From assembly GCA_965213925.1 (NCBI GenBank), contig OZ243927.1, forward strand, positions 1,216,001-1,280,000: 64,000 bases of DNA. Direction: 5' to 3'. The notes below the pieces were generated by a model, which did not search any database, was not told the DNA's origin, and was given only the letters and a program-made list of their open reading frames with translations. The DNA is from Trueperaceae bacterium. Its GTDB lineage: Bacteria; Deinococcota; Deinococci; Deinococcales; Trueperaceae. Below, in pieces: positions 1 to 62,690 of this stretch (positions within the stretch are counted from its first letter, which is position 1; each line of letters starts with the position of its first letter). Position numbers and translations under genes: made by a program.

Positions 1-1101
<1,101 letters not shown>

Positions 1102-1141
1102 AGGAGTTCCTTTCGAGGAAAGAGGTCTTTTCCTTGCATTC

Positions 1142-1160
1142 TATATCCCCTAGGGGTATA
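1142..1160. promoter_or_regulatory. CsoR/CstR-type operator candidate
   Basis: TATATCCCCTAGGGGTATA: C/G-tract inverted repeat with AT-rich flanks, about 40 bp upstream of the MBL/rhodanese gene. Confidence 0.6.
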
Positions 1161-1173
1161 AATCAAGTTAAGA

Positions 1174-1418
1174 TAGCAGGCATCATCTGGTCAGCTACAC
1201 TCTCACTAAAAAGAACATCGCCTAGCACGCACTTTCAGGGATGACCTGTTCCCGGTTACACCGTTTTCGCGAATGCGAAAGGGAAACTTCGTAAGCGTCG
1301 CGTGGTTCACGAAGTACTTCCGAAGGAAACCGCTCCCGCTAGCTGCTTTAGCGGGTATATCTGCGGAGAAGTGTTGCTTCGCATGGCTTCGCCCAAGCAA
1401 CGATAAGTGAAACTGCTA
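1174..1418 (+). mobile_element. Family-B MITE-like element with nested inserts
   Basis: TA-GCAGGCATCATCTGG...GTGAAACTGC-TA; 1212-1373 is identical to 19154-19315. Confidence 0.75.
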
Positions 1419-1474
1419 AGCTATGCCGAGATGTAATAACGTGAAGGGTAGGGGAGGGTCCGGCAAGCTAACCC

Positions 1475-3592
1475 TTATCCCCCGAGCGGCACCCTCGCGC
1501 TGACGGTAGTGCCTCTGCCGAGCGTGCTCTCGATGCGCAGCGAGCCGCCCAAAAGCTCCAAGCGTTCACGCATTCCGGCGAGCCCGACGTGATCGGTCGT
1601 GGAGAGTTTCGCTAAGTCAAACCCTTTGCCGTCGTCCTCGATGATGAGGTGAACACGCTCGCGCTCTGCGGTGATAATGACTGACGCGTTCTCCGCCTCC
1701 GCGTGGCGCACCACGTTGGTTAGAGACTCCTGCACCACGCGGTAGATGACCACTTCCACGTTGCGCGGGGAGCGCTCGGGCAGCCGCGCCAACACGTCAA
1801 TAGCCACGCCGCTCTGCGCAGCGAGTTCGCGGGCGAAGCGCCCCAAAGCTGCCTCTAAACCAAGTTCGTCCAACAGGGCGGGGCGCAGGTCGCGCGAGAT
1901 GCGGCGCACGTCCTCTAAGGTCTTGCTCGTCAGCTCTCTAAGGTGCCCTAACTTGCCCTCGCCGGGTCTCTCTTCTAACCGTTTGATGTTAAGTAGCATC
2001 GCCGTTAGGGACTGCCCGACTTGGTCGTGCAGGTCCCTCGAGATGCGTCCCCGCTCCTCCTCTTGCGCGGTTAAGAGTGCCTCTAACGCCCGCTGCCGCG
2101 CCGTCACGTCGAGGGCTAAAGCGGCGACGCGCACGGTCTCGCCGAGGTCGTTCTTGAGGAGCGTGTTATACCACTCGCAGGTGATAATGCGCCCGCCTTT
2201 CGTGATGTTGCGATTCGTGCTGCGGTAGCCGCCCGCCTCGAATTGCCCTTGCCAAACCCCGCTGAGTTGCTCCTTGACCTCTTTAGAGACGAGTAAGTCG
2301 GTAGTCTTTTTGCCCACGACCTCATCCGCGCGGTAGCCGAAGATGCGCTCGGCGGCGGGATTCCAGGCGGTCAGCACGAAGCTTTTGACGTCCCACTCGA
2401 TGACCGCTAGGGGCGTGTGCTCGACGTGCAGCGCCACGCGATTCTCGCTCTCGCGCAGCGCCCTTTCTGCCGTCACGCGCTCGGTAATATCCAGAATGAC
2501 GGCTGCGAAAAGGGGTGGCTTTTCGTCCTTGAAGAGCTGCAGATGCACCTCGGTAGGGTAGTGGGTGCCGTCTTTGCGGCGGTGCAAGGTGTTGAATAAG
2601 AGGGCGGCTTGCTCGCCCGTGCGGAGCGGACGAATCAAGTTCTCGAAACGTTCTTTAGAGAATTCCGGCTCGAGGTCAACGGGCGTGAGCGCCCTGAGTT
2701 CGACCATGCTGTAGCCCAAGTTGCGCCGCCCGCCCTCGTTGACGAGCGTGAAGTGGAGCGTCTCGGCGTCGAAGAGGTAGATTTCGTTTAACGAACTCTC
2801 CAAAACGCGCCCCAAGCGTGCCACCTTCGCCTCCGCCCGCTTGTGTTCGCTCACGTCGCGAATCGCCGCTGAGATAAGCGTTCGCCCGTCGGTTTCTAGG
2901 GGTGTGAGGCTAATTTCGACGGGAAACTCCGCGCCGTCCTTGCGCAGCGCGAGCAATTCCAAACCCGTCCCCATCGGGCGGGCGTGGGGATTGGCGAAGT
3001 AGTTCCGGTGATGCCCCTCATGCCTCGTCCGAAAGCGCTCAGGAATCAAGAAGTCCATGCGCTGCCCGATAAGTTCATCCCTTGTATAGCCGAACATCAG
3101 CGCCATCTGCGCGTTGACCATCGCGATAACGCCGCGCTCGTCCACGACCATGAGCGCGTCAATGGGGGCCTCCAAAAGCCGCTTAAACTTCGCCTCCGCC
3201 GCTTTGATTTCGGTCACATCTAAGTGCGTGATGAGCGCCCCGCCCGCCTCGCCCGTCAGCGGCGAGACGCTCATCATGTAGGCGTGGACGCCCGAGGCTA
3301 AGTCCCTTTGGTAGTCGAAGCGAAAGCCAGGCAGTGCGCCGCTAAGGACCGCCCGGACGCCCCGGCGACAGGCGCTCGTTTTCTCGTCACTCAGGTTTTG
3401 CAGGGGTTCGCACACGTCGCTGTAGTGCTGTCCGACGAACCCGTCAGACTGCGCCTGACCTTCGCAAAACTGCCACCACGCCGCGTTGACCACCGTGATG
3501 ACGCCGTCCGCGTTCACGATGACGGTCGGTCCCGCCAGAGCGTCGAGGACGTTCTGCGCGGCGACGGACAGAGATGTAGTCTTTCGCATCAT
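1475..3592 (-). CDS. Multi-PAS sensor histidine kinase (HisKA_3/NarX-type)
   Basis: Four PAS-like repeats, EEERGRISRDLHDQVGQ H-box, DDGKGF and GLAGMRER ATPase boxes. Confidence 0.92.
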   Translation of the reverse strand: MMRKTTSLSVAAQNVLDALAGPTVIVNADGVITVVNAAWWQFCEGQAQSDGFVGQHYSDVCEPLQNLSDEKTSACRRGVRAVLSGALPGFRFDYQRDLASGVHAYMMSVSPLTGEAGGALITHLDVTEIKAAEAKFKRLLEAPIDALMVVDERGVIAMVNAQMALMFGYTRDELIGQRMDFLIPERFRTRHEGHHRNYFANPHARPMGTGLELLALRKDGAEFPVEISLTPLETDGRTLISAAIRDVSEHKRAEAKVARLGRVLESSLNEIYLFDAETLHFTLVNEGGRRNLGYSMVELRALTPVDLEPEFSKERFENLIRPLRTGEQAALLFNTLHRRKDGTHYPTEVHLQLFKDEKPPLFAAVILDITERVTAERALRESENRVALHVEHTPLAVIEWDVKSFVLTAWNPAAERIFGYRADEVVGKKTTDLLVSKEVKEQLSGVWQGQFEAGGYRSTNRNITKGGRIITCEWYNTLLKNDLGETVRVAALALDVTARQRALEALLTAQEEERGRISRDLHDQVGQSLTAMLLNIKRLEERPGEGKLGHLRELTSKTLEDVRRISRDLRPALLDELGLEAALGRFARELAAQSGVAIDVLARLPERSPRNVEVVIYRVVQESLTNVVRHAEAENASVIITAERERVHLIIEDDGKGFDLAKLSTTDHVGLAGMRERLELLGGSLRIESTLGRGTTVSARVPLGG

Positions 3593-3695: not shown

Positions 3696-3992
3696 TTGCA
3701 AAGCGTGGAAATAGAGCAGCTCGGACTTAGAATCTACCCCGAGACCTTAGCGCAGCTTTCCTGGACGGAACCGCGCCGTAAAGAGGTCGGCAGCGAGACG
3801 GGCTGGGAAGCCGACACCGTCCACGCCGACCAGTTTGGCGACCTGGTGACGAACCTGCACCGCTCGCTTTTAGAGCCGGAGGTGTCGCGGTGGCACGTCA
3901 GGCTCGACTACATCGACATCGGTCCCATCCGCCGCACCTTTACCTCGCCCAGCGAACACACCACAACTTTCGTAACTTTCAGTATTGATTAA
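3696..3992 (+). pseudogene. Fragment resembling the C-terminal domain of SAM hydrolase/chlorinase (DUF62)
   Basis: VHADQFGDLVTNL...IGPIRRTF resembles the HIDxFGNxxTN motif; N-terminal domain is missing. Confidence 0.45.
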
Positions 3993-4013
3993 AAGTAGTA
4001 AAAGAACTACACT
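3985..4013 (+). promoter_or_regulatory. Sigma70 promoter of the MarR-ABC operon, overlapping an imperfect inverted repeat (candidate operator at about 3975-3996)
   Basis: TTGATT-N17-TACACT; ACTTTCAGTATTGATTAAAAGT; SD AGGAGG before GTG 4031. Confidence 0.6.
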
Positions 4014-4030
4014 GACTGTAGGAGGTTTTA

Positions 4031-4525
4031 GTGATTTCTGAACTGTCTGAAGAAAAGCAGGTGTACATCGAGGAGTTAGCGATGGTCTTGGAGGGGTTCG
4101 GTATGACCCGCATCGCGGCGCGTGTCTTGAGTGCGCTCTTAGTCGCCGACCCGCCCGAGCAGACCGCCGAGCAACTCGCCGCGACGCTTCAGGCGAGCCG
4201 GGGAGCCATCAGTGGCGGCACGACGATGCTCACGACGATGGGGCTCATTGAACGTCGCCGCCGCCCCGGAGACCGCAAGGACTACTTCCGTAACAAATCC
4301 AACGCTTGGCTCGAGGCGACCAAGCAGCAAGTGACGATGATTTCGCAGCTGCGTAACTTGGCAGAACGAGGTTTGGAGGTTATCGCCAGTGACGATCCTA
4401 AAGTCACCGAGGGCTTGCGCGATATGCGCGACATGCTCCGCTTCTATGAGCGCGAGTTACCCGAGATGCTAGCGCGGTGGCAAGCCAAAGTAGAAGCAGA
4501 AAGAGCGAACGAAAGGAACGGATGA
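4031..4525 (+). CDS. GbsR/MarR-family transcriptional regulator
   Basis: GMTRIAARVLSALL...SRGAISG...PGDRKDYF winged-helix pattern. Confidence 0.88.
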   Translation: MISELSEEKQVYIEELAMVLEGFGMTRIAARVLSALLVADPPEQTAEQLAATLQASRGAISGGTTMLTTMGLIERRRRPGDRKDYFRNKSNAWLEATKQQVTMISQLRNLAERGLEVIASDDPKVTEGLRDMRDMLRFYERELPEMLARWQAKVEAERANERNG

Positions 4526-5748
4526 ACACCTCTATCTCCAAACTCGCCTGGCGCAATCTGTGGCGACACAAGCGGCGCACGCAGCTCTTGCTGGCAGTCG
4601 TGGCTTACGCAACCGTCGCCATCATCTTTTTCTGGGGCTTTTACGACGGCTTTGTCAACGTCCTTTTAGGCGGACAAGCCCGCTACTTGAGCGCTCCAGT
4701 CATGGTGCAGAGCGAGGCGTATCGCACCGACCCTGACCCGGAAAACAGCTTGCCGACGTTGGACTTCACGGACGAACTCACGCAGGTTGAAGGCGTGCGC
4801 GGGACCGCGCCGAGGTTAGAGTTTCAAGCCTTGATGCGCTCACCTTACCGGACGCTGGGCTCGCAGGTAAGAGGTATCGACCCCAGCTTAGAGCCGCAAG
4901 TCAGCGACATCCCCGGTGACATCGGTGAGGGGCGTTTTATTGAAAACTCCGGCGAACTGGTGCTGGGTATCGAACTCGCCCAAGACCTCGACGTGCGCGT
5001 TGGAGAACGCTTGGCGCTCGACGTGCAGTCGCTTGCCGGGGCTCAGGGGACGGGTTTGCAAGTCGTTGGCATCATCGACAGCAACATTAATCCGGTGGAT
5101 GAAGGGGTCGTGCTGGTGCATTTAGACGACGCGCGAACGCTTACGGGTGTAGACACCGCAACGGGTGTGGCGCTCGACGTGCAGCAAGGAGGTGAAGAAG
5201 AGGTTGCAGAAGCGGTCAATACCGCGTCGGTCTTACCTCAAAACGTCGGGGCTTATCCTATCTCTGAACTCTTGGGCGGTCTTTTAGCGGCGATTGAAGA
5301 CAAACGCGCCTCGATGATCCCTATTGTCCTGATGATTGCGCTGTTCGCCGCTGTTACGGTCATGAGCACCGTAATCGTGAGCGTGATTGAGCGCACGAGG
5401 GAGTTTGGCGTCATCACCTCTTTAGGGCTCGACCAGGCGCAGCTCGCGCGGATGGTGACGTTGGAAGCGGTTTACACTACCTTTATCGGCTTCGCCTTAG
5501 GCGCGGTTCTCGGGTTTAGTCTGAACGCGCTCATGTCCGCCACCAACCTGATGGGGCCTTTTATCAACACCTTTTACGGCGCGTACCTCTCGGGCTTGGC
5601 GCTCAGCGACACGTTTGTGTTCGCCTCGAGCCTCGCCTACCTCGCCTGGGCCGCCGTGACGATTCTCATCGCCGCCGTTTTAGCGATTACCGTACCCGGC
5701 AGGCGCGTACGCAACCTCAACCCCGCTGAGGCGATGCGGGCGAATTAG
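4522..5748 (+). CDS. ABC transporter permease (FtsX/MacB/LolE family)
   Basis: LAWRNLWRHKRRT start, periplasmic domain, ERTREFG motif; ATGA overlap with the regulator. Confidence 0.92.
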   Translation: MNTSISKLAWRNLWRHKRRTQLLLAVVAYATVAIIFFWGFYDGFVNVLLGGQARYLSAPVMVQSEAYRTDPDPENSLPTLDFTDELTQVEGVRGTAPRLEFQALMRSPYRTLGSQVRGIDPSLEPQVSDIPGDIGEGRFIENSGELVLGIELAQDLDVRVGERLALDVQSLAGAQGTGLQVVGIIDSNINPVDEGVVLVHLDDARTLTGVDTATGVALDVQQGGEEEVAEAVNTASVLPQNVGAYPISELLGGLLAAIEDKRASMIPIVLMIALFAAVTVMSTVIVSVIERTREFGVITSLGLDQAQLARMVTLEAVYTTFIGFALGAVLGFSLNALMSATNLMGPFINTFYGAYLSGLALSDTFVFASSLAYLAWAAVTILIAAVLAITVPGRRVRNLNPAEAMRAN

Positions 5749-5750
5749 AG

Positions 5751-5805
5751 GCAGAAGCAAGAAGCAAGAATCTTCTCTCTTCCTGCTTCTTGCTTCCTAC
5801 TTCTA
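5751..5805. repeat. Inverted heptamer arrays (empty)
   Basis: (AGAAGCA)x2-AGAA then TTCCTGC TTCTTGC TTCCTAC TTCTA. Confidence 0.85.
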
Positions 5806-5825
5806 CATTCTTAGAAAGGAATGCC

Positions 5826-6563
5826 ATGAAGTTCATCTACCTACTGTTAGCCATTTTTCCTCTCAGCCTTGCCAACGCTCAAGAGGACGCGGCGAGTATC
5901 CTAGACACCATTGTGAACAACCTGCGCGGCGAGTCGCAAGCGGCGACGCTGAACATGCAAGTGATTCGTCCGGACGAAGAGGACACCTACACCATGCGCA
6001 TCTACAGCGAGGGTGAAGAGCAGGGCTTAACCAGAGTGATTGCGCCGCCACGCGACGCCGGACAAGCCTTTTTGAACGACGGCGATAACGTCTTTATCTA
6101 CAACCCACGCCTGCGCCGCGTCTTGAGGCTACCGCCGAGCGGTCAGAGCGATTCGTTTTTGGGTTCGGACATCTCGTATAACGACCTTGCAGGCGACGAC
6201 TTAGAAGAGGACTACCGAGCGAGCGTCTCCGAAGAGACCGACGATAGTGTGACGCTCGAGCTTGTTCCTAATCCGAATGCACCCACCCCCTACGGCAAAG
6301 TCGAGCTGACCGCTATGAAACCCTCGTACGCGCCGACGAATATCACCTACTACGACCAAAGAGGTAACGCGGTGAAAGAAAACATCCTCTCCGACTACGC
6401 CGAGGTGGACGGGCTCAACATTCCGCAGCGTTTTGAGGTGACGGACTTACTCGAGGAAGGCCACCGCACCGTCGTCACCTGGCAGGACGCCGAGTTCGGC
6501 GTGGATATCCCGCAGGGCTGCTTTACGCAAAACGCTTTGGAGCGTGAGGGGGCGTGCGAATGA
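5826..6563 (+). CDS. Outer-membrane lipoprotein-sorting (LolA-like) protein
   Basis: Signal peptide; SFLGSDISYNDL motif; typical partner of these ABC operons. Confidence 0.8.
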   Translation: MKFIYLLLAIFPLSLANAQEDAASILDTIVNNLRGESQAATLNMQVIRPDEEDTYTMRIYSEGEEQGLTRVIAPPRDAGQAFLNDGDNVFIYNPRLRRVLRLPPSGQSDSFLGSDISYNDLAGDDLEEDYRASVSEETDDSVTLELVPNPNAPTPYGKVELTAMKPSYAPTNITYYDQRGNAVKENILSDYAEVDGLNIPQRFEVTDLLEEGHRTVVTWQDAEFGVDIPQGCFTQNALEREGACE

Positions 6564-6567
6564 GGGT

Positions 6568-6647
6568 AGAAGCAGGAAGCAGGAAGCAAAAAGCAAGAAT
6601 GGAAGGGCCTTTCTTCCTGCTCCTCGCTCCTTGCTCCTTGCTTCTCG
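6568..6647. repeat. Inverted heptamer arrays (empty)
   Basis: (RRAAGCA)x4-AGAA then TTCCTGC TCCTCGC TCCTTGC TCCTTGC TTCTCG. Confidence 0.85.
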
Positions 6648-6684
6648 ACTCCGCTGACATCGCAAATAGGCGGACAGCCCCACT

Positions 6685-7911
6685 ATGCTAGCCCTCGCTT
6701 GGCGCAACCTCTGGCGGCAGGGGCGGCGCAGCCTCATCTCGCTCGTCGCCGTCGCCATCGTCGTGCTCTTCGCCATCGTTATGTACAGCTTCGGCGGGGC
6801 GATGACGAACGGCATGTACGGAGATTTGACCCAAGAGGTGGGCAACGTGCAGATTCATACCCAGGGCTACCGGGACGCGAGGGGTTTTGGAGACGGGCTC
6901 TTGGAAAACGCGCAAGAGGTCAGAGAGACGGTCTTTCAAGTGTTGCCGGACACTGTTTCTGTCGGCTCCTTACAAGTTCCCGGACTGATTGCGGGGGAGG
7001 ACCGCTCGAGAGGCTTAGCGGTGCAAGGGCAGGACTGGCCCGAGGTTGTGCGTGAAGACTTCGTGGACTACCTAGCAGAAGGCACCTTTGTCGAGGGCGA
7101 TAACATCACCGGCATCATGTTGGGGCGTTCTTTGGCAACAGCGTTAGAGGTCAGCTTAGGCGATGACGTGTACGTCTACGCCCCCGGCACCGAGGGCTAC
7201 GGCGCAGCCGCGTATACCGTCGAAGGTCTGCTGGATTTCGACGACCCCAACCGCGAGATCAACGCGGCGTACCTCTCGCTCATAGCGGCGCAGGAGTTGG
7301 CTGCGCCGGACGCGCTCTCAAGGCTCGAGCTTCACTTCCCCGGCGTCAACACCTTAGCGCAAGACGCGCAGACGGCGGACGACCTAGCCGCGCTCAGAAA
7401 CGCGCTAGGGGACGGTGTGGTTGTAGAAGGTTGGCGAGACATCGACCCCAGCCTCGCCACGCTGGTTCAGTTCTTCGCACCTGTCATCGTGGTGATGTCG
7501 CTGATCTTCTTTGTGCTGGCAGGTCTGCTCGTTCTGAACACGGTTTACCTCAGCACCTTAGAGCGCATCCGCGAGTTTGGCGTCATCATCAGCTTAGGGG
7601 CGAGAGGTCGGCAGGTTATGGGCATGGTCACGTTAGAGAGCTTGCTCTTGTGCCTTTCGGGTGCGGCTGTCGGTCTCGCTATCGGCTTAGGCATTGTGGC
7701 GCTCGGTAGAAACGGTCTCGAACTACCCGGCTACAGCGAAGAGATATTGGCAGAATTTGGCTTGCCCAACGTCTTCTACCTCTCCATAGAGCCCTGGCAA
7801 GTGCTCATCGCCGTAGGTTTCGCCGTGCTCACCGCTATCCTCGCCGCGCTATGGCCCGCGCGCATCGCAGCGAATACTGAACCAGCCGAAGCGATGAGGT
7901 ACACCGCGTGA
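6685..7911 (+). CDS. ABC transporter permease (FtsX/MacB/LolE family)
   Basis: LAWRNLWRQGRRS, ERIREFG, PAEAMR C-terminus. Confidence 0.92.
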   Translation: MLALAWRNLWRQGRRSLISLVAVAIVVLFAIVMYSFGGAMTNGMYGDLTQEVGNVQIHTQGYRDARGFGDGLLENAQEVRETVFQVLPDTVSVGSLQVPGLIAGEDRSRGLAVQGQDWPEVVREDFVDYLAEGTFVEGDNITGIMLGRSLATALEVSLGDDVYVYAPGTEGYGAAAYTVEGLLDFDDPNREINAAYLSLIAAQELAAPDALSRLELHFPGVNTLAQDAQTADDLAALRNALGDGVVVEGWRDIDPSLATLVQFFAPVIVVMSLIFFVLAGLLVLNTVYLSTLERIREFGVIISLGARGRQVMGMVTLESLLLCLSGAAVGLAIGLGIVALGRNGLELPGYSEEILAEFGLPNVFYLSIEPWQVLIAVGFAVLTAILAALWPARIAANTEPAEAMRYTA

Positions 7912-8299
7912 ATCAGGAGCGAGGAGCGGGAAGCAAGGAGCAAGAAGATAGGGCAAAAACGTTTAGAGACCTCGTCGTGTGGCAGAAAGCTCACGCCTTT
8001 ATCCTAGACGTTTACCGCTACAGCGAAACGTTCCCGAAAACCGAGATGTACAGACTGACCTCCCAGTTACGCCGCGCGGCGGTGTCTGTCGCTGCCAACA
8101 TTGCAGAGGGATTCGCCAAAAGGGGTGTCGCTGATAAACTTCGCTTTTACGCTCAAGGTTCCCTCGAGGAGTGCAGCTACTACCTTATACTCGCTCGAGA
8201 TTTGGGATTCGGCGAAACAGCAAACTCAGCGAACAGCTTTTCGAAGTCGGACGGCTCCTCGGCGCATACATGAAAGCCATTCAAAAGCAGCGGACGTAG
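7908..8299 (+). pseudogene. Four-helix-bundle protein (23S rRNA IVS-protein/bAvd-like family), frameshifted, flanked by heptamer arrays (7915-7946 and 8316-8348)
   Basis: FRDLVVWQKAH...LTSQLRRAAVSVAANIAEG...QGSLEE; the canonical C-terminus LSEQLFEVGRLLGAYMKAI continues in another frame after about 8224 to TAG 8297-8299. Confidence 0.8.
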
Positions 8300-8362
8300 C
8301 ATGAGAGATTGACCATTCCCGCTCCTCACTTCTTGCTTCTCACTTCTACGAAAGGAATTACT

Positions 8363-9055
8363 ATGCCCCTTTTCAAGGTTAAATCTCTAAAGAAAACCTA
8401 TCAAATCGGCGAGGTCAAAACGCACGCTTTACAAGGTGTAGACCTTACGGTAGATAAAGGCGAGTTCACCGCCATCGCTGGACCGTCGGGCAGCGGTAAG
8501 AGCACGCTCTTGCACCTCATGGGCGGGCTCGATACGCCCACCTCGGGCGAGGTTTATTTGAACGACAAGCGCATCGACCAGCTCAGCAAGAAAGAGGCGG
8601 CGGCGGTGAGGTTGGATAAACTTGGGTTCGTCTTTCAAGCCTACAACCTCATCCCGGTGCTCACAGCCTTGGAGAACGCCGCGTTCGTTTTGGAGTTGCA
8701 GGGTGTGGGTAAAAAGGAGCGAGAAACGAAGGCGCTCGCGTCCTTAAAAGCCTTAGGTATGGAAGAATTCGCTGACCGCCGCCCCAACCAACTTTCCGGC
8801 GGGCAGCAGCAGCGCGTGGCGGTAGCGCGTGCCTTCGCCGCTAGCCCGGACATCATCCTAGCCGACGAACCTACCGCCAACTTGGACAGCAAGTCAGGGG
8901 GCGACCTCATCGAACTGATGAAGCGGCTGAACGAAGACGAGGGCGTGACCTTTGTGTTCTCCACGCACGACCCAAGACTTTTGGACCATGTGAAGCGCAC
9001 CGTGAATATGGAGGATGGGCGCGTCTTGCGCGAGGGGGCGTTGCAAGCGGCATGA
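8363..9055 (+). CDS. ABC transporter ATP-binding protein (LolD-like)
   Basis: GPSGSGKS, LSGGQQQR, DEPTANLD; SD AAAGGA before ATG 8363. Confidence 0.95.
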   Translation: MPLFKVKSLKKTYQIGEVKTHALQGVDLTVDKGEFTAIAGPSGSGKSTLLHLMGGLDTPTSGEVYLNDKRIDQLSKKEAAAVRLDKLGFVFQAYNLIPVLTALENAAFVLELQGVGKKERETKALASLKALGMEEFADRRPNQLSGGQQQRVAVARAFAASPDIILADEPTANLDSKSGGDLIELMKRLNEDEGVTFVFSTHDPRLLDHVKRTVNMEDGRVLREGALQAA

Positions 9056-9996
9056 GGTACGCCGCTATCCTCTTTATATCCTCTATGTTATTTACGTCCC
9101 TCTCCTTTGCGCAACTGAATTACAGAGGTGAGCTGGAGGTCGCCGAAGATGCAACTGTCGTTCTTGACTCAGGCGAAGAGGTCGGCTGGACGGTAGCGGC
9201 GCACGTCGAAGCGGACTACCGCTTGGAGCCCGTGACCTTGAACCTCGAGCTAGACCCCAGCCTCCGCTTTAGCGAAGAGGTCACAGCGGAACCTGGACTT
9301 ACTGAGCTTTACGCCGCAACCTCGTTAGGCGACGTCGAACTGAGCGCGGGGCGCGAACGACTTGCGCTCGAGTATGGACGCATCACGCTGCCGTTTGTGG
9401 TCGAGGAACTCAACGATAGAGGGGTGCGGTTGGGCGTGCCTGGGGTGCGGGCGACCTGGTTCCCGGAGAACTACCGGGTGCGTGGGGCGCTCTTCTATAG
9501 AGACACCGTAATCCCACTTATCAACGTGCGGCGGACCTTTGGAGCGTTCGAGTTAGAAGCGACAGCCCTGTACCAAGACCGTTTTGTGGCAGGCTTAGGC
9601 GGCAGCGGCTCCGTCGGCGACCTCGTCGTGTACGGTGAAGGTTGGCTCCTCACTGATCCGGTGAATGCTCGGGGTGCGCTTGGCGTAACGGGCTATCTGG
9701 GCGACAGGCTTTGGACGGTAGAAGGGGCGTATGCACCTCTTGAGCCGGACGCTTTAGCGCCCGAACTCGGTCCAGCGGCGGCGCGTGTGGCGGGGCAACT
9801 CACCTTGTTACAAAACGAGGACTCGAGCCTGCAACTAGACGCCCGCGTGGGCTTTCCAGAGACCGGCGTCGAGGTCAGCCCGACGCTGAACTACACCGCG
9901 CTAGGCGACCAGGAACTCACGGCGGCTTTCGGCGGACGCTTCAGCGAAGCGGCGACGGTACTCACCTTGAATGTAAGGATTCGGGCGTTTTTCTGA
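9052..9996 (+). CDS. Putative outer-membrane beta-barrel protein
   Basis: Signal peptide, alternating beta-strand pattern, C-terminal Phe; last gene of the operon. Confidence 0.65.
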   Translation: MRYAAILFISSMLFTSLSFAQLNYRGELEVAEDATVVLDSGEEVGWTVAAHVEADYRLEPVTLNLELDPSLRFSEEVTAEPGLTELYAATSLGDVELSAGRERLALEYGRITLPFVVEELNDRGVRLGVPGVRATWFPENYRVRGALFYRDTVIPLINVRRTFGAFELEATALYQDRFVAGLGGSGSVGDLVVYGEGWLLTDPVNARGALGVTGYLGDRLWTVEGAYAPLEPDALAPELGPAAARVAGQLTLLQNEDSSLQLDARVGFPETGVEVSPTLNYTALGDQELTAAFGGRFSEAATVLTLNVRIRAFF

Positions 9997-10003
9997 AACT
10001 GAT

Positions 10004-10235
10004 TACACCGTTAAGTAAAAAATGACTCATGTCATTCTGAACGGAGCCCTACGGCGAGCGTAGGATAGACTCCGCCCTACGGTAAACCATAGGATAGACT
10101 CCGTGAAAGAATCTCTGCCCTTGCTGACTCCTCTGATAGAGAAGGAAAGTTACGTAGTTTTGGCATAGCCAACCGAGACCCTCACGCCTTCGGCTCAGGG
10201 TGACAACAATGGCGCAGAATTTACTTAACGGTGTA
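10004..10235. mobile_element. Family-A MITE
   Basis: TIR TACACCGTTAAGTAAA / TTTACTTAACGGTGTA; CTGAT on both sides; internal GTCATTCTG...AGAATCTC and GAGACCCT...CAGGGTGAC hairpins. Confidence 0.85.
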
Positions 10236-10736: not shown

Positions 10737-12041
10737 ATGGAGCGTGAGAACATAGGGCGCAAGAGGCAAGAGGCTATTTACATCGGCGGGGTGGCGGGCG
10801 ACAAGCCGGCTGTACCCGTTGACGTGGCGAAGCTCGAGGCGGCCGCCCGCCGTAAGATGAGCGCCGAGGGCTACGCCTACGTCGCGGGTGGCGCGGGCGT
10901 AGAAAGCACCGTGTCGGAGAACCGCCAGGCGTTTGAGCGCTGGCGCATCGTGCCCAGGATGCTCAAGGGCGTGCAGGAGCGCGACACCTCGGTCGAGCTT
11001 TTCGGTCATACGTTACCGAGCCCTTTTTTGCTCGCGCCGATAGGCGTTTTAGAGATGGCACACAAGGAGGCTGATCTCGCCGTCTCGAGAGCCGCCGCCG
11101 CCGAAAACGTCCCCTTCATCTTCTCCAACCAAGCCTCCGCGCCGATGGAGCGGTGCGCCGAGGTGATGGATGAGGTGATAGACAACATGACGGACCGTGG
11201 CGCAGGCAGGACTCCGCGTTGGTTCCAGCTCTACTACAGCCGCAGCGCCGACCTGGTCCTGAGTTTCGTGAGGCGCGCCGAAGCCTGCGGTTGCGCGGCT
11301 ATCGTCGTCACCCTCGACACGACGCTGCTTGGCTGGCGCACCCGCGACCTCGACCTCGCCTACTTACCCTTTTTGCGCGGCAAGGGAATCGCGCAGTACA
11401 CGAGCGACCCCGTGTTTGCACAGCTACTCGAGCAAGCGCCCCCAGCGCAGCGTAGAGGGAGGGTGACCTTCGCCTCCATCCGCGCACTCTGGCAGATGAT
11501 GAGGGCGCACCCCGGCACGTTTCGTACCAATTTGCGCTCCGGCGCACCGATTAAAGCCGTGCAGAGCTTTATCCAAGGCTACTCCAAACCCTCGTTAGAC
11601 TGGGACGACATCGCCTTCTTGCGCGAACAAACCGAGCTACCACTCTTGCTCAAGGGCGTGCTGCATCCAGACGATGCGAAAAAGGCGCTCGAGTATGGCG
11701 TCGACGGGCTCATCGTTTCCAACCACGGCGGGCGGCAGGTCGATGGGTCCATTGCCGCCTTGGACGCGCTACCTAAGATCGCCGAGGTCGTACAAGGCCG
11801 CGTCCCAATTCTCATGGACAGCGGCGTTCGCGGTGGCGCGGACCTCTTCAAAGCGCTCGCATTAGGCGCGACAGCCGTTTGCTTAGGGCGTCCTTACGTC
11901 TACGGCTTGGCGGTGGCGGGCGAGCGGGGCGTGCGCGAGGTGATCCAGAACCTCAAGGCGGACTTCGACCTGACGCTGGGCTTAGCAGGTTGCAAAAGCG
12001 TGCGGGAGATAGACCGAAATAGCCTCTCGGCTAGGATGTAG
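10737..12041 (+). CDS. FMN-dependent alpha-hydroxy acid oxidase (lactate 2-monooxygenase-like)
   Basis: LAPIGV, WFQLY, SNHGGRQ, DSGVRGG motifs; TATGAT 6 nt before ATG 10737. Confidence 0.9.
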
Positions 12042-60812: not shown

Positions 60813-62690
60813 TTGAAACACGCGAAACGCTTTTTAGCCCTACCGTTCCTGATCATTTTCTTAGCAGCGTGCGGAACGTACAGCGAACTTCCCGAGCAGG
60901 TCGCCGAGGCGGATGTAGAAGAGATTGTTGCGGTTGCTGAGTTAGCACCGGACGCCGAAATCGGATCGCAGGGATATAAGAGAGATAATCTCGTGCTCCG
61001 CGTCGAGAAGCAGGTTCTTCCCGATGACCACGCAGACCCACACCCCGCCAAGTACGACATTGATCTCATCTGTAAGAAAAAGGGTGGCGGCAAACTTGTA
61101 ATCGACTTACCTACGTTCACTAAGTCTGGCGCGAAGACCTACAACGTGAGCAAGAGCAAGATCAACTACTATCTCGGCAACACCAAGCACTGCTTTGTCC
61201 GTGAAAGGGGCACGGTAGGCACCAAGCTCGTCCGGTTCAACGTCACAAAAGACGCGAAGACCGTGTCGGGTTTCCCCCAGACGGTTCTCCCCAAAGACTA
61301 CGCTAACAAGAGAACGGTCAAGTCGAAGAAGTTCGACCTCGAGCACGTAAACAAGAAGATCGTCATCAAGGTCGTCAACAAGTTCGAGGAAGAGAAGAAG
61401 GAAGAGAAGGACTTTGAGCTTGTCGTCGAGAAGAAGTTCGTTGACGCGCACGGCAACGAAGTCAAGCCCGAGCACTACTACCTCAGCGTGGACCTCGAGT
61501 GTAAAGAGGGTAAAAAAGATGTGATCGATGAGACCCTCCTCACTGCAGGTAAGCTCCACTTCTCGGATCACGATTTCAAAGACTTAGGCGGCTTAAAGTG
61601 CGAGATCGAGGAGAAGTTCGCCTCGGACGATCTCAAGCTGCATGAGGTCATCGTCAAGTTCGAAGCTTCCGAACACGGCAGGCACATCGCCAGCGGCGAG
61701 AAGAAAGACAAGCACATCGAGGACAAGCACTACAAGGGCAAAGAGGTCCAGTGGGCTAACTCCGGCTACTTCCACGTCCCCGAGAAGGCTGACAAGCTCG
61801 TCATCATCATTATCGACGTCGTCAAAGAGGTCGAGGACGACTTCGAGCTTGTCGTCGAGAAGAAGTTCGTTGACGCGCACGGCAACCCGGTTGACGTCAA
61901 AGACTACTACTTAGAGGTGGACCTCGAGTGTAAAGAGGGTAAAAAAGACGTGGTCGATGAGACCCTCCTCACTGCAGGTAAGCTCCACTTCTCGGATCAC
62001 GATTTCAAAGACTTAGGCGGCTTAAAGTGCGAGATCGAGGAGAAGTTCGCCTCGGACGATCTCAAGCTGCATGAGGTCATCGTCAAGTTCGAAGCTTCCG
62101 AACACGGCAGGCACATCGCCAGCGGCGAGAAGAAAGACAAGCACATCGAGGACAAGCACTACAAGGGCAAAGAGGTCCAGTGGGCTAACTCCGGCTACTT
62201 CCACGTCCCCGAGAAGGCTGACAAGCTCGTCATCATCATTATCGACGTCGTCAAAGAGGTCGAGGACGACTTCAAAATCATCGTCAACAAGGAGTTCAAA
62301 GAAGGAAATTACAACGGTCACGTCCTCCATCTCGACCCTCACGCCTACGACCTCAGAGTGGCTATCGTTTGTGAAGACGGTACAAGGGTCCACGTCAATC
62401 TCGGCAACGATCTCCACTTCTCGGACCACGACGCCGAGGACCTGAGAGGCAAGAAGTGCTACGTCGAAGAGTACTTCAAGTCCGACTATTACGATCTCCT
62501 CAGATTCAGAACCACGTATAGCACTGACAATCACGACGATTACAGAGTCTCCGCCGGTGTCTGGAAGAGCGAGAAAAACGGCTATCAGTACGTGAACAAT
62601 GATGATAAGCCGTTCCACATCTCTAAAGACGCGGATGAACTCGTGATTGACCTCGTCAACGCTGTTGAAGAAAGCAAGTACTACCACTAA
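60813..62690 (+). CDS. Surface lipoprotein with four tandem beta-sandwich (CnaB-like) domains
   Basis: Lipobox LAAC; SD GAGGAG; 429-bp internal tandem repeat. Confidence 0.85.
   Translation: MKHAKRFLALPFLIIFLAACGTYSELPEQVAEADVEEIVAVAELAPDAEIGSQGYKRDNLVLRVEKQVLPDDHADPHPAKYDIDLICKKKGGGKLVIDLPTFTKSGAKTYNVSKSKINYYLGNTKHCFVRERGTVGTKLVRFNVTKDAKTVSGFPQTVLPKDYANKRTVKSKKFDLEHVNKKIVIKVVNKFEEEKKEEKDFELVVEKKFVDAHGNEVKPEHYYLSVDLECKEGKKDVIDETLLTAGKLHFSDHDFKDLGGLKCEIEEKFASDDLKLHEVIVKFEASEHGRHIASGEKKDKHIEDKHYKGKEVQWANSGYFHVPEKADKLVIIIIDVVKEVEDDFELVVEKKFVDAHGNPVDVKDYYLEVDLECKEGKKDVVDETLLTAGKLHFSDHDFKDLGGLKCEIEEKFASDDLKLHEVIVKFEASEHGRHIASGEKKDKHIEDKHYKGKEVQWANSGYFHVPEKADKLVIIIIDVVKEVEDDFKIIVNKEFKEGNYNGHVLHLDPHAYDLRVAIVCEDGTRVHVNLGNDLHFSDHDAEDLRGKKCYVEEYFKSDYYDLLRFRTTYSTDNHDDYRVSAGVWKSEKNGYQYVNNDDKPFHISKDADELVIDLVNAVEESKYYH
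61410..62267 (+). repeat. Intragenic tandem duplication, 2 x 429 bp
   Basis: 61410-61838 vs 61839-62267; differences are confined to about the first 120 nt. Confidence 0.95.

Follow-up and report, generated by a model that had tools for sequence, protein, structure and literature searches.

Intervening sequences (IVSs) of Coxiella, Leptospira and other bacteria lie in helices 9, 25 or 45 of 23S rRNA and carry a PF05635 gene, whose open reading frame (ORF) is enclosed in a stem-loop by terminal inverted repeats. According to a section of PMC4990558, S23p in the helix 45 IVS of Coxiella burnetii starts after a purine-rich motif and three heptamers in tandem; the inverted repeats at the ends of this IVS form a 28-bp stem, RNase III cuts at the first repeat, the repeat number differs between strains, and the ORF is decaying. 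Here, we analyzed a 64,000-nucleotide stretch of a Trueperaceae bacterium (contig OZ243927.1, positions 1,216,001 to 1,280,000; hereafter the window), in which three junctions of one operon carry inverted arrays of heptamers, and the arrays at the third junction enclose a four-helix-bundle (4HB) gene of the PF05635 family. Our results suggest that the three sites are probably copies of one kind of IVS-type palindromic cassette, either filled with the 4HB gene or ORF-less, that is transcribed within the operon.

The initial annotation of this DNA had proposed that the arms of the filled site could loop out the ORF as an IVS does, and the IVS-like architecture was borne out by comparison with the Coxiella element and with an IVS on a plasmid (locus L144, see below). 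As in IVSs, a PF05635 gene lies between terminal inverted repeats that can close a stem around the ORF (7915-7947 and 8316-8347; the pairing energy is unexceptional), and tandem heptamers (five in the window, at 7915-7949) and a purine-rich, ribosome-binding-like motif precede its start. Variable repeat number and ORF decay are common to both, and the published passages on IVSs read their sporadic distribution as horizontal transfer. However, IVSs lie in rRNA, whereas the window elements lie between protein-coding genes of an operon: no rRNA match was found in 5600-8500, and the filled site is flanked by permease and ATPase genes. The window further differs from IVSs in having ORF-less mini-versions, with loops of 9-14 nt, beside the filled one, and RNase III cutting has been shown for the Coxiella IVS only. 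Rfam gave no match above threshold; the hits below it were hairpin look-alikes, namely microRNA precursor models and a plastid 3' UTR model. We consider the assignment of the window feature to IVS-type cassettes, residing in mRNA, to be well supported by analogy.

The window arrays also resemble the heptanucleotide repeats described as short tandemly repeated repetitive (STRR) sequences and long simple sequence repeats (SSRs) in cyanobacteria, as TAACTGA repeats in Beggiatoaceae and as GGGAATC repeats in Xanthomonas, all of which are short intergenic 7-nt arrays near gene ends, in the same phyla. In form the window arrays belong to the STRR/long SSR class, with head-to-tail 7-nt units in 2.6-5.4 copies in three intergenic spacers. 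The described repeats differ from them in unit sequence and, in the relevant parts of the publications, are treated as regulatory sites or G-quadruplexes. Xanthomonas was reported to have 70-75 convergent (inverted) heptamer pairs, and the sections of PMC4679880 and PMC4692102 concerned make no link to 4HB genes, IVSs or insertion polymorphism. A passage dating from 2015 states that there was no detailed literature on intergenic heptanucleotide repeats. In its account of the TAACTGA repeats, an excerpt of PMC4679880 also mentions a hypothetical protein, BOGUAY_0693, with 29 close matches in its own genome, and Supplemental Table 7 of that paper is described there as listing genomes with matches to the hypothetical protein having 29 same-genome matches. 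Heptanucleotide repeats and inverted pairs of them (Xanthomonas, cyanobacteria, Beggiatoaceae) are already known, as are ORF-bearing IVSs. In the literature searched, which lay outside subscription journals, no paper connected heptamer arrays with 4HB genes other than for the Coxiella IVS, none joined heptamer repeats and IVSs into an operon-junction 4HB cassette with ORF-less relatives, and the link to operon junctions was likewise absent.

Two further kinds of element invite comparison. Repetitive extragenic palindromes (REPs) and the REPINs built from them occur as many short, ORF-less extragenic hairpins together with a RAYT gene that is flanked by inverted copies of the same repeats, and at operon junctions they can affect mRNA stability. 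RAYT is a Y1 transposase and the REPs of a genome are conserved single palindromes. 4HB proteins have no known catalytic motif, and the window arrays are unlike REPs in consisting of tandem heptamers with variable units. Miniature transposable elements with inverted repeats (MITEs) are likewise short and ORF-less, with inverted ends, presence/absence polymorphism and a larger gene-bearing relative; the cassettes described here differ in having no transposase, no target-site duplication at the pair compared, and tandem-repeat ends in which the unit changes.

We searched the window for two-unit matches to the pattern RGRAGCR with at most one mismatch, using 100 shuffles as control. The results showed 18 matches compared with 2.81 per shuffle (sd 1.59, maximum 7), and none of the 100 shuffles reached 18. 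Seventeen of the matches fall in 5753-5804, 6568-6645, 7915-7942 and 8320-8347, in agreement with the facing (RGRAGCR)n arrays that had been noticed earlier at three operon junctions; the eighteenth (8715-8728), which has one mismatch, lies within the ATPase gene. Tandem Repeats Finder placed period-7 arrays at 5753-5770, 5779-5803, 6568-6599, 6615-6652, 7915-7941 and 8325-8347, and the sole further period-7 row in the 64 kb was at 10759-10774 (2.3 copies). Each site contains inverted pairs, of 17 nt (94% complementary) at site 1, 32 nt (75%) at site 2, and 18 nt (89%) and 26 nt (73%) at site 3, and their spacers of 9, 14 and 374-383 nt, respectively, confirmed that two pairs are nearly contiguous and that the third surrounds the 4HB gene between permease and ATPase (Table 1). 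The left arms begin 3-5 nt past the stop codon of the upstream gene at all three sites. AGAA ends the left arm and TTCC opens the right arm in every case, within identical inner boundaries (GCAAGAA ... TTCC[T/C]GC), and sites 1 and 3 have in common the outer end CTTCTAC followed by an identical Shine-Dalgarno-like 9-mer, GAAAGGAAT.

Folding of the plus-strand RNA gave -32.1 kcal/mol for site 1 (z -4.0 vs shuffles) and -42.7 kcal/mol for site 2 (z -2.6), and in the 476 nt of site 3 the arms were paired around the gene in both the minimum-energy and the centroid folds. Stable stem-loops in intergenic spacers might also be intrinsic terminators or attenuators between genes. However, no coding-strand T-run follows any of the three right arms, and the region 3900-10200 contained seven terminator-like sites compared with 6.1 in shuffles, those on the plus strand being away from the arms; the only one within the feature lies in the site 2 loop (6617-6601), on the minus strand and not on that of the operon. 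In addition, the downstream genes encode parts of the same transporter and need expression. We regard a terminator or attenuator role as extremely improbable.

The gene at site 3 belongs to the 4HB family, with scores of 101.4 bits for PF05635 (cut-off 33.8) and 92.4 bits for TIGR02436 (cut-off 24). It has AGG (7950-7952) in place of the start methionine codon (RAKTF vs MAKTF in intact relatives), is without the residues NI near 8151 (RFYAQGS vs the conserved RFYNIAQGS), and loses its frame after GFGE, at a run of A near 8215-8218; the last helix, which is conserved (EVGRLLGAY), lies in another frame that runs to TAG 8297-8299. Intact members read about 120 residues in one frame and have all four helices, which is no longer true of this copy. 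The window copy is a pseudogene and therefore cannot itself supply protein, and a local profile built from 119 homologues detected no further member of the family in the 64 kb. The protein's nearest relatives are only about 80% identical, with named homologues from other phyla among them, which is in line with mobility; among 8000 scored candidates, 7952 were homologues at E <=1e-5, and the intact relative P0003 matched PDB 2GSC (E 2.1e-16). The protein database entry for the window copy (P0001, 121 aa, 7908-8273) begins at GTG 7908, a start that shares bases with the permease stop codon, and its frame runs through the left arm. Array-like N- or C-terminal tails were also found in several homologues (e.g. 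P0008, P0004, P0009), and tails translated from arrays appear to be a recurrent annotation artefact of the family. For genome annotation this means that gene callers read through arrays, giving false N- or C-terminal tails, and that decayed copies are called as genes.

The family had earlier been related to bAvd, the accessory protein of diversity-generating retroelements (DGRs), and this relation stands: the relevant text of PMC10053308 states that PF05635 resembles Avd, with a related four-helix-bundle fold and a pentameric relative, 2GSC. We, therefore, considered whether the 4HB gene might be the Avd accessory gene of a DGR, or a remnant of one, as the weak match to NF033474 (DivGenRetAVD; E 0.0013) could suggest. 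However, this match scored 19 bits against a cut-off of 80, neither a template repeat nor a variable repeat lies nearby, and a phage collection contained no match to the intact relative at E 1e-6 or better. The Avd score far below its cut-off and the lack of a reverse transcriptase nearby contradict a DGR at this locus, and we give that explanation next to no credence.

Evidence that such cassettes are discrete units came from Nostoc plasmids. Starting from a Nostoc punctiforme plasmid cassette, we used the surrounding 2.3 kb as query and found orthologous operons in 15 records, part of which were fetched. At one junction, five of the fetched operons have a stop codon, 3 nt and ATG without arrays, and three have about 415 nt (arrays and ORF) exactly between the stop codon and ATG. 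The empty junction reads TAG GTT ATG and the filled one reads TAA, followed by the cassette, which begins with ATCAGGAG and ends with GGATTCTG, and then ATT ATG. The motif ATCAGGAG, directly after the stop codon, opens the window's cassette and the Nostoc cassette alike. Placement at stop-to-start junctions, as first noticed in the window, thus applies to three of three window sites and is exact in the Nostoc plasmids. In L136, the same junction is empty and a different 4HB cassette, with GGGAAAA-type arrays, occupies the next one; an ORF-less hairpin with the same TCAGGAG arrays as the cassette of the first junction is present at a third junction in L125, L132 and L133, and there is none in L129.

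The Nostoc cassette and its flanks differ in their history. In Aulosira, Trichormus and Scytonema, the same cassette occurs at 82-84% identity in unrelated contexts, with no similarity beyond the arrays. Between L124 and L125, the flanks are 94-96% identical (dS 0.15-0.25) and the cassette ORF is 77% identical (dS 0.86); between L123 and L125, the flanks have dS 0.32-0.53 and the cassette ORF dS 0.05. In L123 and L136, the downstream gene is 99.6% identical, and the cassette is present in L123 and absent at that junction in L136. Diverged pairs of the cassette ORF gave dN/dS values of 0.10-0.20, and therefore the 4HB protein is under purifying selection where it is intact. We consider cassette mobility to be well supported by these comparisons, and the cassette reading of the window sites to be well supported by analogy with them. 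The initial annotation had proposed a pair of cassettes, one autonomous and one not; comparison with other organisms upheld the parts of this proposal by which arrays and 4HB gene form one unit and ORF-less and filled versions share operons, whereas an autonomous role of the 4HB protein is conjectural and would not fall to the window's own copy, which has decayed and has no second 4HB gene beside it. In a separate observation, the ORF-less hairpin of L133 (530-821) has a second array pair nested in its loop, enclosing an insert of about 100 nt.

To sample 4HB genes more widely, we combined the window gene and 5 genome loci with 16 plasmid loci, the latter from a tblastn search of plasmids with the intact relative (29 records, of which 18 were fetched, plus one more). 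This gave 22 4HB genes that could be scored with both flanks, from Deinococcota-like, Cyanobacteriota, Bacteroidota, Verrucomicrobiota, Gemmatimonadota, Firmicutes-like and Alphaproteobacteria sources; L121, L123 and L125, which repeat the L120/L124 junctions, and L044 and L104, which are cut by the locus end, were excluded. The score measured how far the stop region is the inverted complement of the upstream 90 nt, and 2997 random 360-nt segments of the same loci served as control. It was found that 15 of the 22 genes score 12 or more, as do less than 1% of random segments (the window gene scores 12), and that 12/20 genes score 14 or more compared with 8/2997 random segments (99th percentile 11). 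Direct instead of inverted arrays flank the gene in three (L026, L128 and L143). The repeat unit varies by cassette (TCAGGAG, AGGAGAT, GGGAAAA, AGGGTGT, AAAAGGG, GGTTYAA and others), and the two arms of each match. Among the array-selected genome loci, each 4HB gene that turned up with sufficient flank stands between short-period arrays of its own. Examples are the 4HB genes between GTCAGTG/CACTGAC arrays in L052, between GGGAAGC/GCTTCCC arrays in L074, and between AGTGTTC arrays and their complement in L045, where the flanking genes are metK and ahcY (by eye); L016 has weaker complementary arrays and a downstream ORF whose start is CysN-like (by eye), and the direct arrays of L026 are of the GGGAYTR type.

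Typical hosts of these cassettes are tight co-directional junctions, e.g. in a conjugation operon, between cas10 and cmr3, between cas6 and cas4 (twice), and between an integrase and a hypothetical gene. One of the 22 genes, that of L144 on an Azospirillum lipoferum plasmid, lies in a true IVS: positions 286-3264 are a 23S rRNA gene (2456.7 bits with the LSU model), in which the 4HB ORF lies between inverted heptamer arrays (CAGAGGA-type and complement), and PLSDB has no annotation at this place. Table 5 of PMC5524665 gives, for two Flavobacterium columnare genomes, a 366-nt 4HB gene that is separated from gmk (guanylate kinase) and nadD by 35 and 33 nt in one genome and by 35 and 88 nt in the other; the region is listed as a phage element. 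Judged by its coordinates alone, this gene looks like a junction cassette. Three of the plasmid cassettes lie inside CRISPR-cas operons (L126 1495-1851, L128 1498-1857 and L139 1480-1848), and in a Gemmatirosa plasmid (L143, 1330-1900) 8-nt units surround the 4HB gene, with an ORF-less inverted pair just upstream.

We also started from the arrays. A scan of a genome collection with a 25-nt RGRAGCR pattern found at least 119 loci, 80 of the listed ones with 4-kb flanks, and the listed loci belong to Gemmatimonadota, Acidobacteriota, Cyanobacteriota, Planctomycetota, Bacteroidota, Verrucomicrobiota, Chloroflexota, delta-proteobacteria and others. Among them, arrays are mainly intergenic and often stand next to arrays of different heptamers. 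The expected co-location of arrays and 4HB genes was found in one direction: the association is weak when one starts from arrays and strong only when one starts from the gene. Ordinary slippage could in principle have produced the arrays as simple sequence repeats, in which case it would be coincidence that they face each other and that the 4HB gene lies where it does; passages of PMC4692102 and PMC4679880, citing Mrazek 2007, state that many bacteria have an excess of heptanucleotide repeats and that polymerase slippage was suggested as the cause. However, the window arrays form inverted pairs at three of three sites, all at junctions of one operon and none elsewhere in the 64 kb, and the inverted flanking arrays of 15 of the 22 4HB genes are far beyond what random segments give. 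Slippage is contradicted by the placement of the RGRAGCR arrays, by the flank score test and by the stop-codon polarity described below, and we regard it as very unlikely.

The listed loci include two kinds of site with further structure. In a groundwater delta-proteobacterial contig (L012), two successive junctions (about 3990-4160 and 4640-4760) carry AGAAGCA-type arrays facing TCTTGCA/ACTTGCA arrays; they flank an ORF with a WCHPC thioredoxin-type motif (by eye), and there are several hairpins per operon, as in the window. L037 and L071 have near-perfect or perfect inverted repeats of about 20 nt within 170-180-nt spacers between complementary arrays, and such loops may collect further insertions.

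The arrays have a clear polarity. Of 71 listed RGRAGCR arrays, 32 begin within 40 nt past a same-strand stop codon (of a frame of at least 100 codons), compared with 6.7% of random positions; on the opposite strand, 7/71 do so, and random positions give 7.5%. The complementary array lies downstream in 17 and upstream in 5 of 101 listed loci with at least 290 nt on both sides, so that the purine arm mostly comes first. This coding-strand polarity argues for a role or a filter at the level of RNA or translation, and it raises the alternative that the host has selected the hairpins as mRNA elements acting in processing, stability or translational coupling, made of Shine-Dalgarno- and anti-Shine-Dalgarno-like heptamers, with the arrays outside any mobile unit and the 4HB gene a passenger prone to land or persist in the loops. 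This explanation also fits the GGAG/AGGAG motifs of the left arms and the CTCCT of the right arms; the left arm of site 3 contains AAGGAG about 11 nt upstream of the former 4HB start codon. However, the cassette-free Nostoc junction has no arrays, only 3 nt from stop to ATG, and the arrays come with the ORF. The similarity between cassettes in unrelated contexts runs through the arrays and ends at their outer ends, ORF-less hairpins are also present or absent among orthologous operons, and the same architecture occurs within 23S rRNA, where translational coupling is meaningless. We therefore judge host-selected mRNA elements unlikely as the whole explanation, and note that they are compatible with the cassette reading and do not exclude it.

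Alternatively, the sites might act as DNA, by cruciform or single-strand hairpin extrusion or by H-DNA, in recombination or replication, with RNA pairing incidental. The complementarity of the arms is strand-symmetric, which argues for a DNA-level origin of the arms, and units turn over within them without any order that preserves base pairs. The nested palindromes in the L037/L071 loops and the second array pair in L133 look like insertion hot spots, and cassettes are exchanged at one junction. On the other hand, action at the DNA level alone does not predict the strong bias in coding-strand orientation, and the stem of the homologous IVS is processed as RNA according to the section of PMC4990558 cited above. 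A purely DNA-level element seems to us less likely still than an mRNA element; a DNA-level origin of the arms and a role or filter at the RNA level may both hold.

On the cassette reading, which we prefer, a purine-rich, Shine-Dalgarno-like array would begin a few bases past the upstream stop codon and be followed by either a short loop or the 4HB gene, and the complementary pyrimidine-rich array would end shortly before the ribosome-binding site of the next gene. The cassette would be gained and lost as a discrete unit and exchanged among junctions and among hosts, as observed elsewhere and as we infer for the window. The copy at 7912-8349 would be an old insertion with a decaying gene, and the two short hairpins its ORF-less relatives. 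All three sites would be transcribed in the operon mRNA, in which the arms may zip into an imperfect duplex of 20-30 bp with many registers owing to the 7-nt period. This duplex would probably serve as a substrate of RNase III, like its counterpart in the Coxiella IVS, in which case cuts at the junctions may divide the polycistronic RNA and the ORF may loop out. The 4HB gene would take its ribosome-binding site from the left array; the GAAAGGAAT 9-mer after the right arm would serve the downstream gene, and therefore the insertion is proposed not to be polar. Movement might occur by recombination through the arrays or by an activity of the 4HB protein. RNase III cutting, binding by the 4HB protein and the mechanism of transposition are thus conjectural parts of this model, drawn from the comparisons above.

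A number of results weigh against the cassette reading. No transposase or recombinase domain was found in the operon, which sets it apart from REP/RAYT and MITE-type systems, and no reverse transcriptase was found among the scanned neighbours (ABC transporter, PAS histidine kinase, FMN dehydrogenase and CheB/CheR kinase). The filled and empty Nostoc pair compared shows no target-site duplication. The loops of ORF-less hairpins hold no ORF remnant, only the arrays matching, and therefore give no support for descent from filled cassettes. A 4HB gene was found in just 7 of 119 listed array loci, adjoining the searched array in two (L074 and L104), and therefore most such arrays are ORF-less. Among the 22 scored 4HB genes, four (L016, L127, L140 and L141) have no clear flanking array pair, and the period is not always 7, with octamers in L143. 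As to folding, sites 1 and 2 fold better as antisense RNA (z -4.2 and -4.1), the whole-segment fold of site 3 has z = -1.3, and its arm-to-arm duplex (-43.1) equals the median of 1000 random segment pairs of the G+C-rich window. Because of the latter two values, the signal at site 3 is the common heptamer family in opposite orientation and not the energy. There was no wobble asymmetry, the arms pairing better as sense RNA in 7/15 cassettes and as antisense in 8/15, and therefore complementarity itself is no sign of selection on the mRNA. Finally, the evidence for gain, loss and processing all comes from organisms other than that of the window.

A broader possibility, which we put forward tentatively and consider rather doubtful, is that these cassettes form a phylum-spanning, transposase-free mobile class in which the 4HB protein, an Avd relative, makes, moves or maintains the arrays. 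The IVSs of 23S rRNA would then be copies that landed in rRNA, and the intergenic heptamer repeats of cyanobacteria, Xanthomonas, Beggiatoaceae and many others would be ORF-less progeny. If true, this would tie in the origin and mobility of 23S rRNA IVSs, which the part of PMC4990558 concerned calls unclear 25 years after their discovery, together with the role of a small-protein family that is among the largest uncharacterised ones, and with the meaning of intergenic heptanucleotide repeats. Cassettes insert exactly between stop and start codon without an evident recombinase, the design of their repeats may keep operon expression intact, and natural filled and empty alleles exist in culturable Nostoc plasmids.

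The genomic setting of the three sites is a plus-strand gene row (4031-9996) in which profile scans of the window identified, in order, MarR, FtsX, LolA_like, MacB/FtsX, 4HB, ABC ATPase and an ORF (Table 1). Among named homologues, those nearest to the LolA_like protein come from a Trueperaceae metagenome-assembled genome and a bin labelled Deinococcus-Thermus, in keeping with a Trueperaceae-like source within Deinococcota; others reach up to 92% identity.

Table 1. Coordinates of the heptamer-array sites and of the genes around them in the window.
Feature	Position	Strand	Remarks
MarR regulator gene	4031-4525	+	
FtsX-type permease gene	4477-5748	+	PF02687, E 5.5e-12; stop TAG 5746-5748, 4 nt before the site 1 array
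Site 1 left arm	5753-5770	+	purine-rich; AGAAGCA x2 plus AGAA
Site 1 loop, 9 nt	5771-5779	+	
Site 1 right arm	5780-5806	+	complementary pyrimidine-rich heptamers; end CTTCTAC
Shine-Dalgarno-like 9-mer upstream of ATG 5826	5814-5822	+	sequence GAAAGGAAT
LolA_like (outer membrane lipoprotein-sorting) gene	5826-6563	+	PF17131, E 1.2e-43; stop TGA 6561-6563
Site 2 left arm	6568-6599	+	AGAAGCA, GGAAGCA, GGAAGCA, AAAAGCA, AGAA
Site 2 loop, 14 nt	6600-6613	+	
Site 2 right arm	6614-6652	+	complementary pyrimidine-rich heptamers
MacB/FtsX-type permease gene	6685-7911	+	PF02687 and PF12704; stop TGA 7909-7911
Site 3 left arm	7912-7949	+	ATCAGGAG right after the stop codon, then five heptamers (7915-7949)
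4HB pseudogene	7950-8299	+	PF05635/TIGR02436; no start Met, 2-residue deletion, frameshift
Site 3 right arm	8316-8349	+	complementary pyrimidine-rich heptamers; end CTTCTAC
Shine-Dalgarno-like 9-mer upstream of ATG 8363	8350-8358	+	sequence GAAAGGAAT
ABC transporter ATPase gene (LolD/MacB-like)	8363-9055	+	PF00005, E 5.9e-35
ORF without family match	9052-9996	+	

Elsewhere in the window, a plus-strand ORF of 625 residues (60813-62690) contains a 429-bp tandem duplication at 61410-62273 (2.0 copies, 96% identity), which corresponds to a repeated 143-residue segment of the protein.

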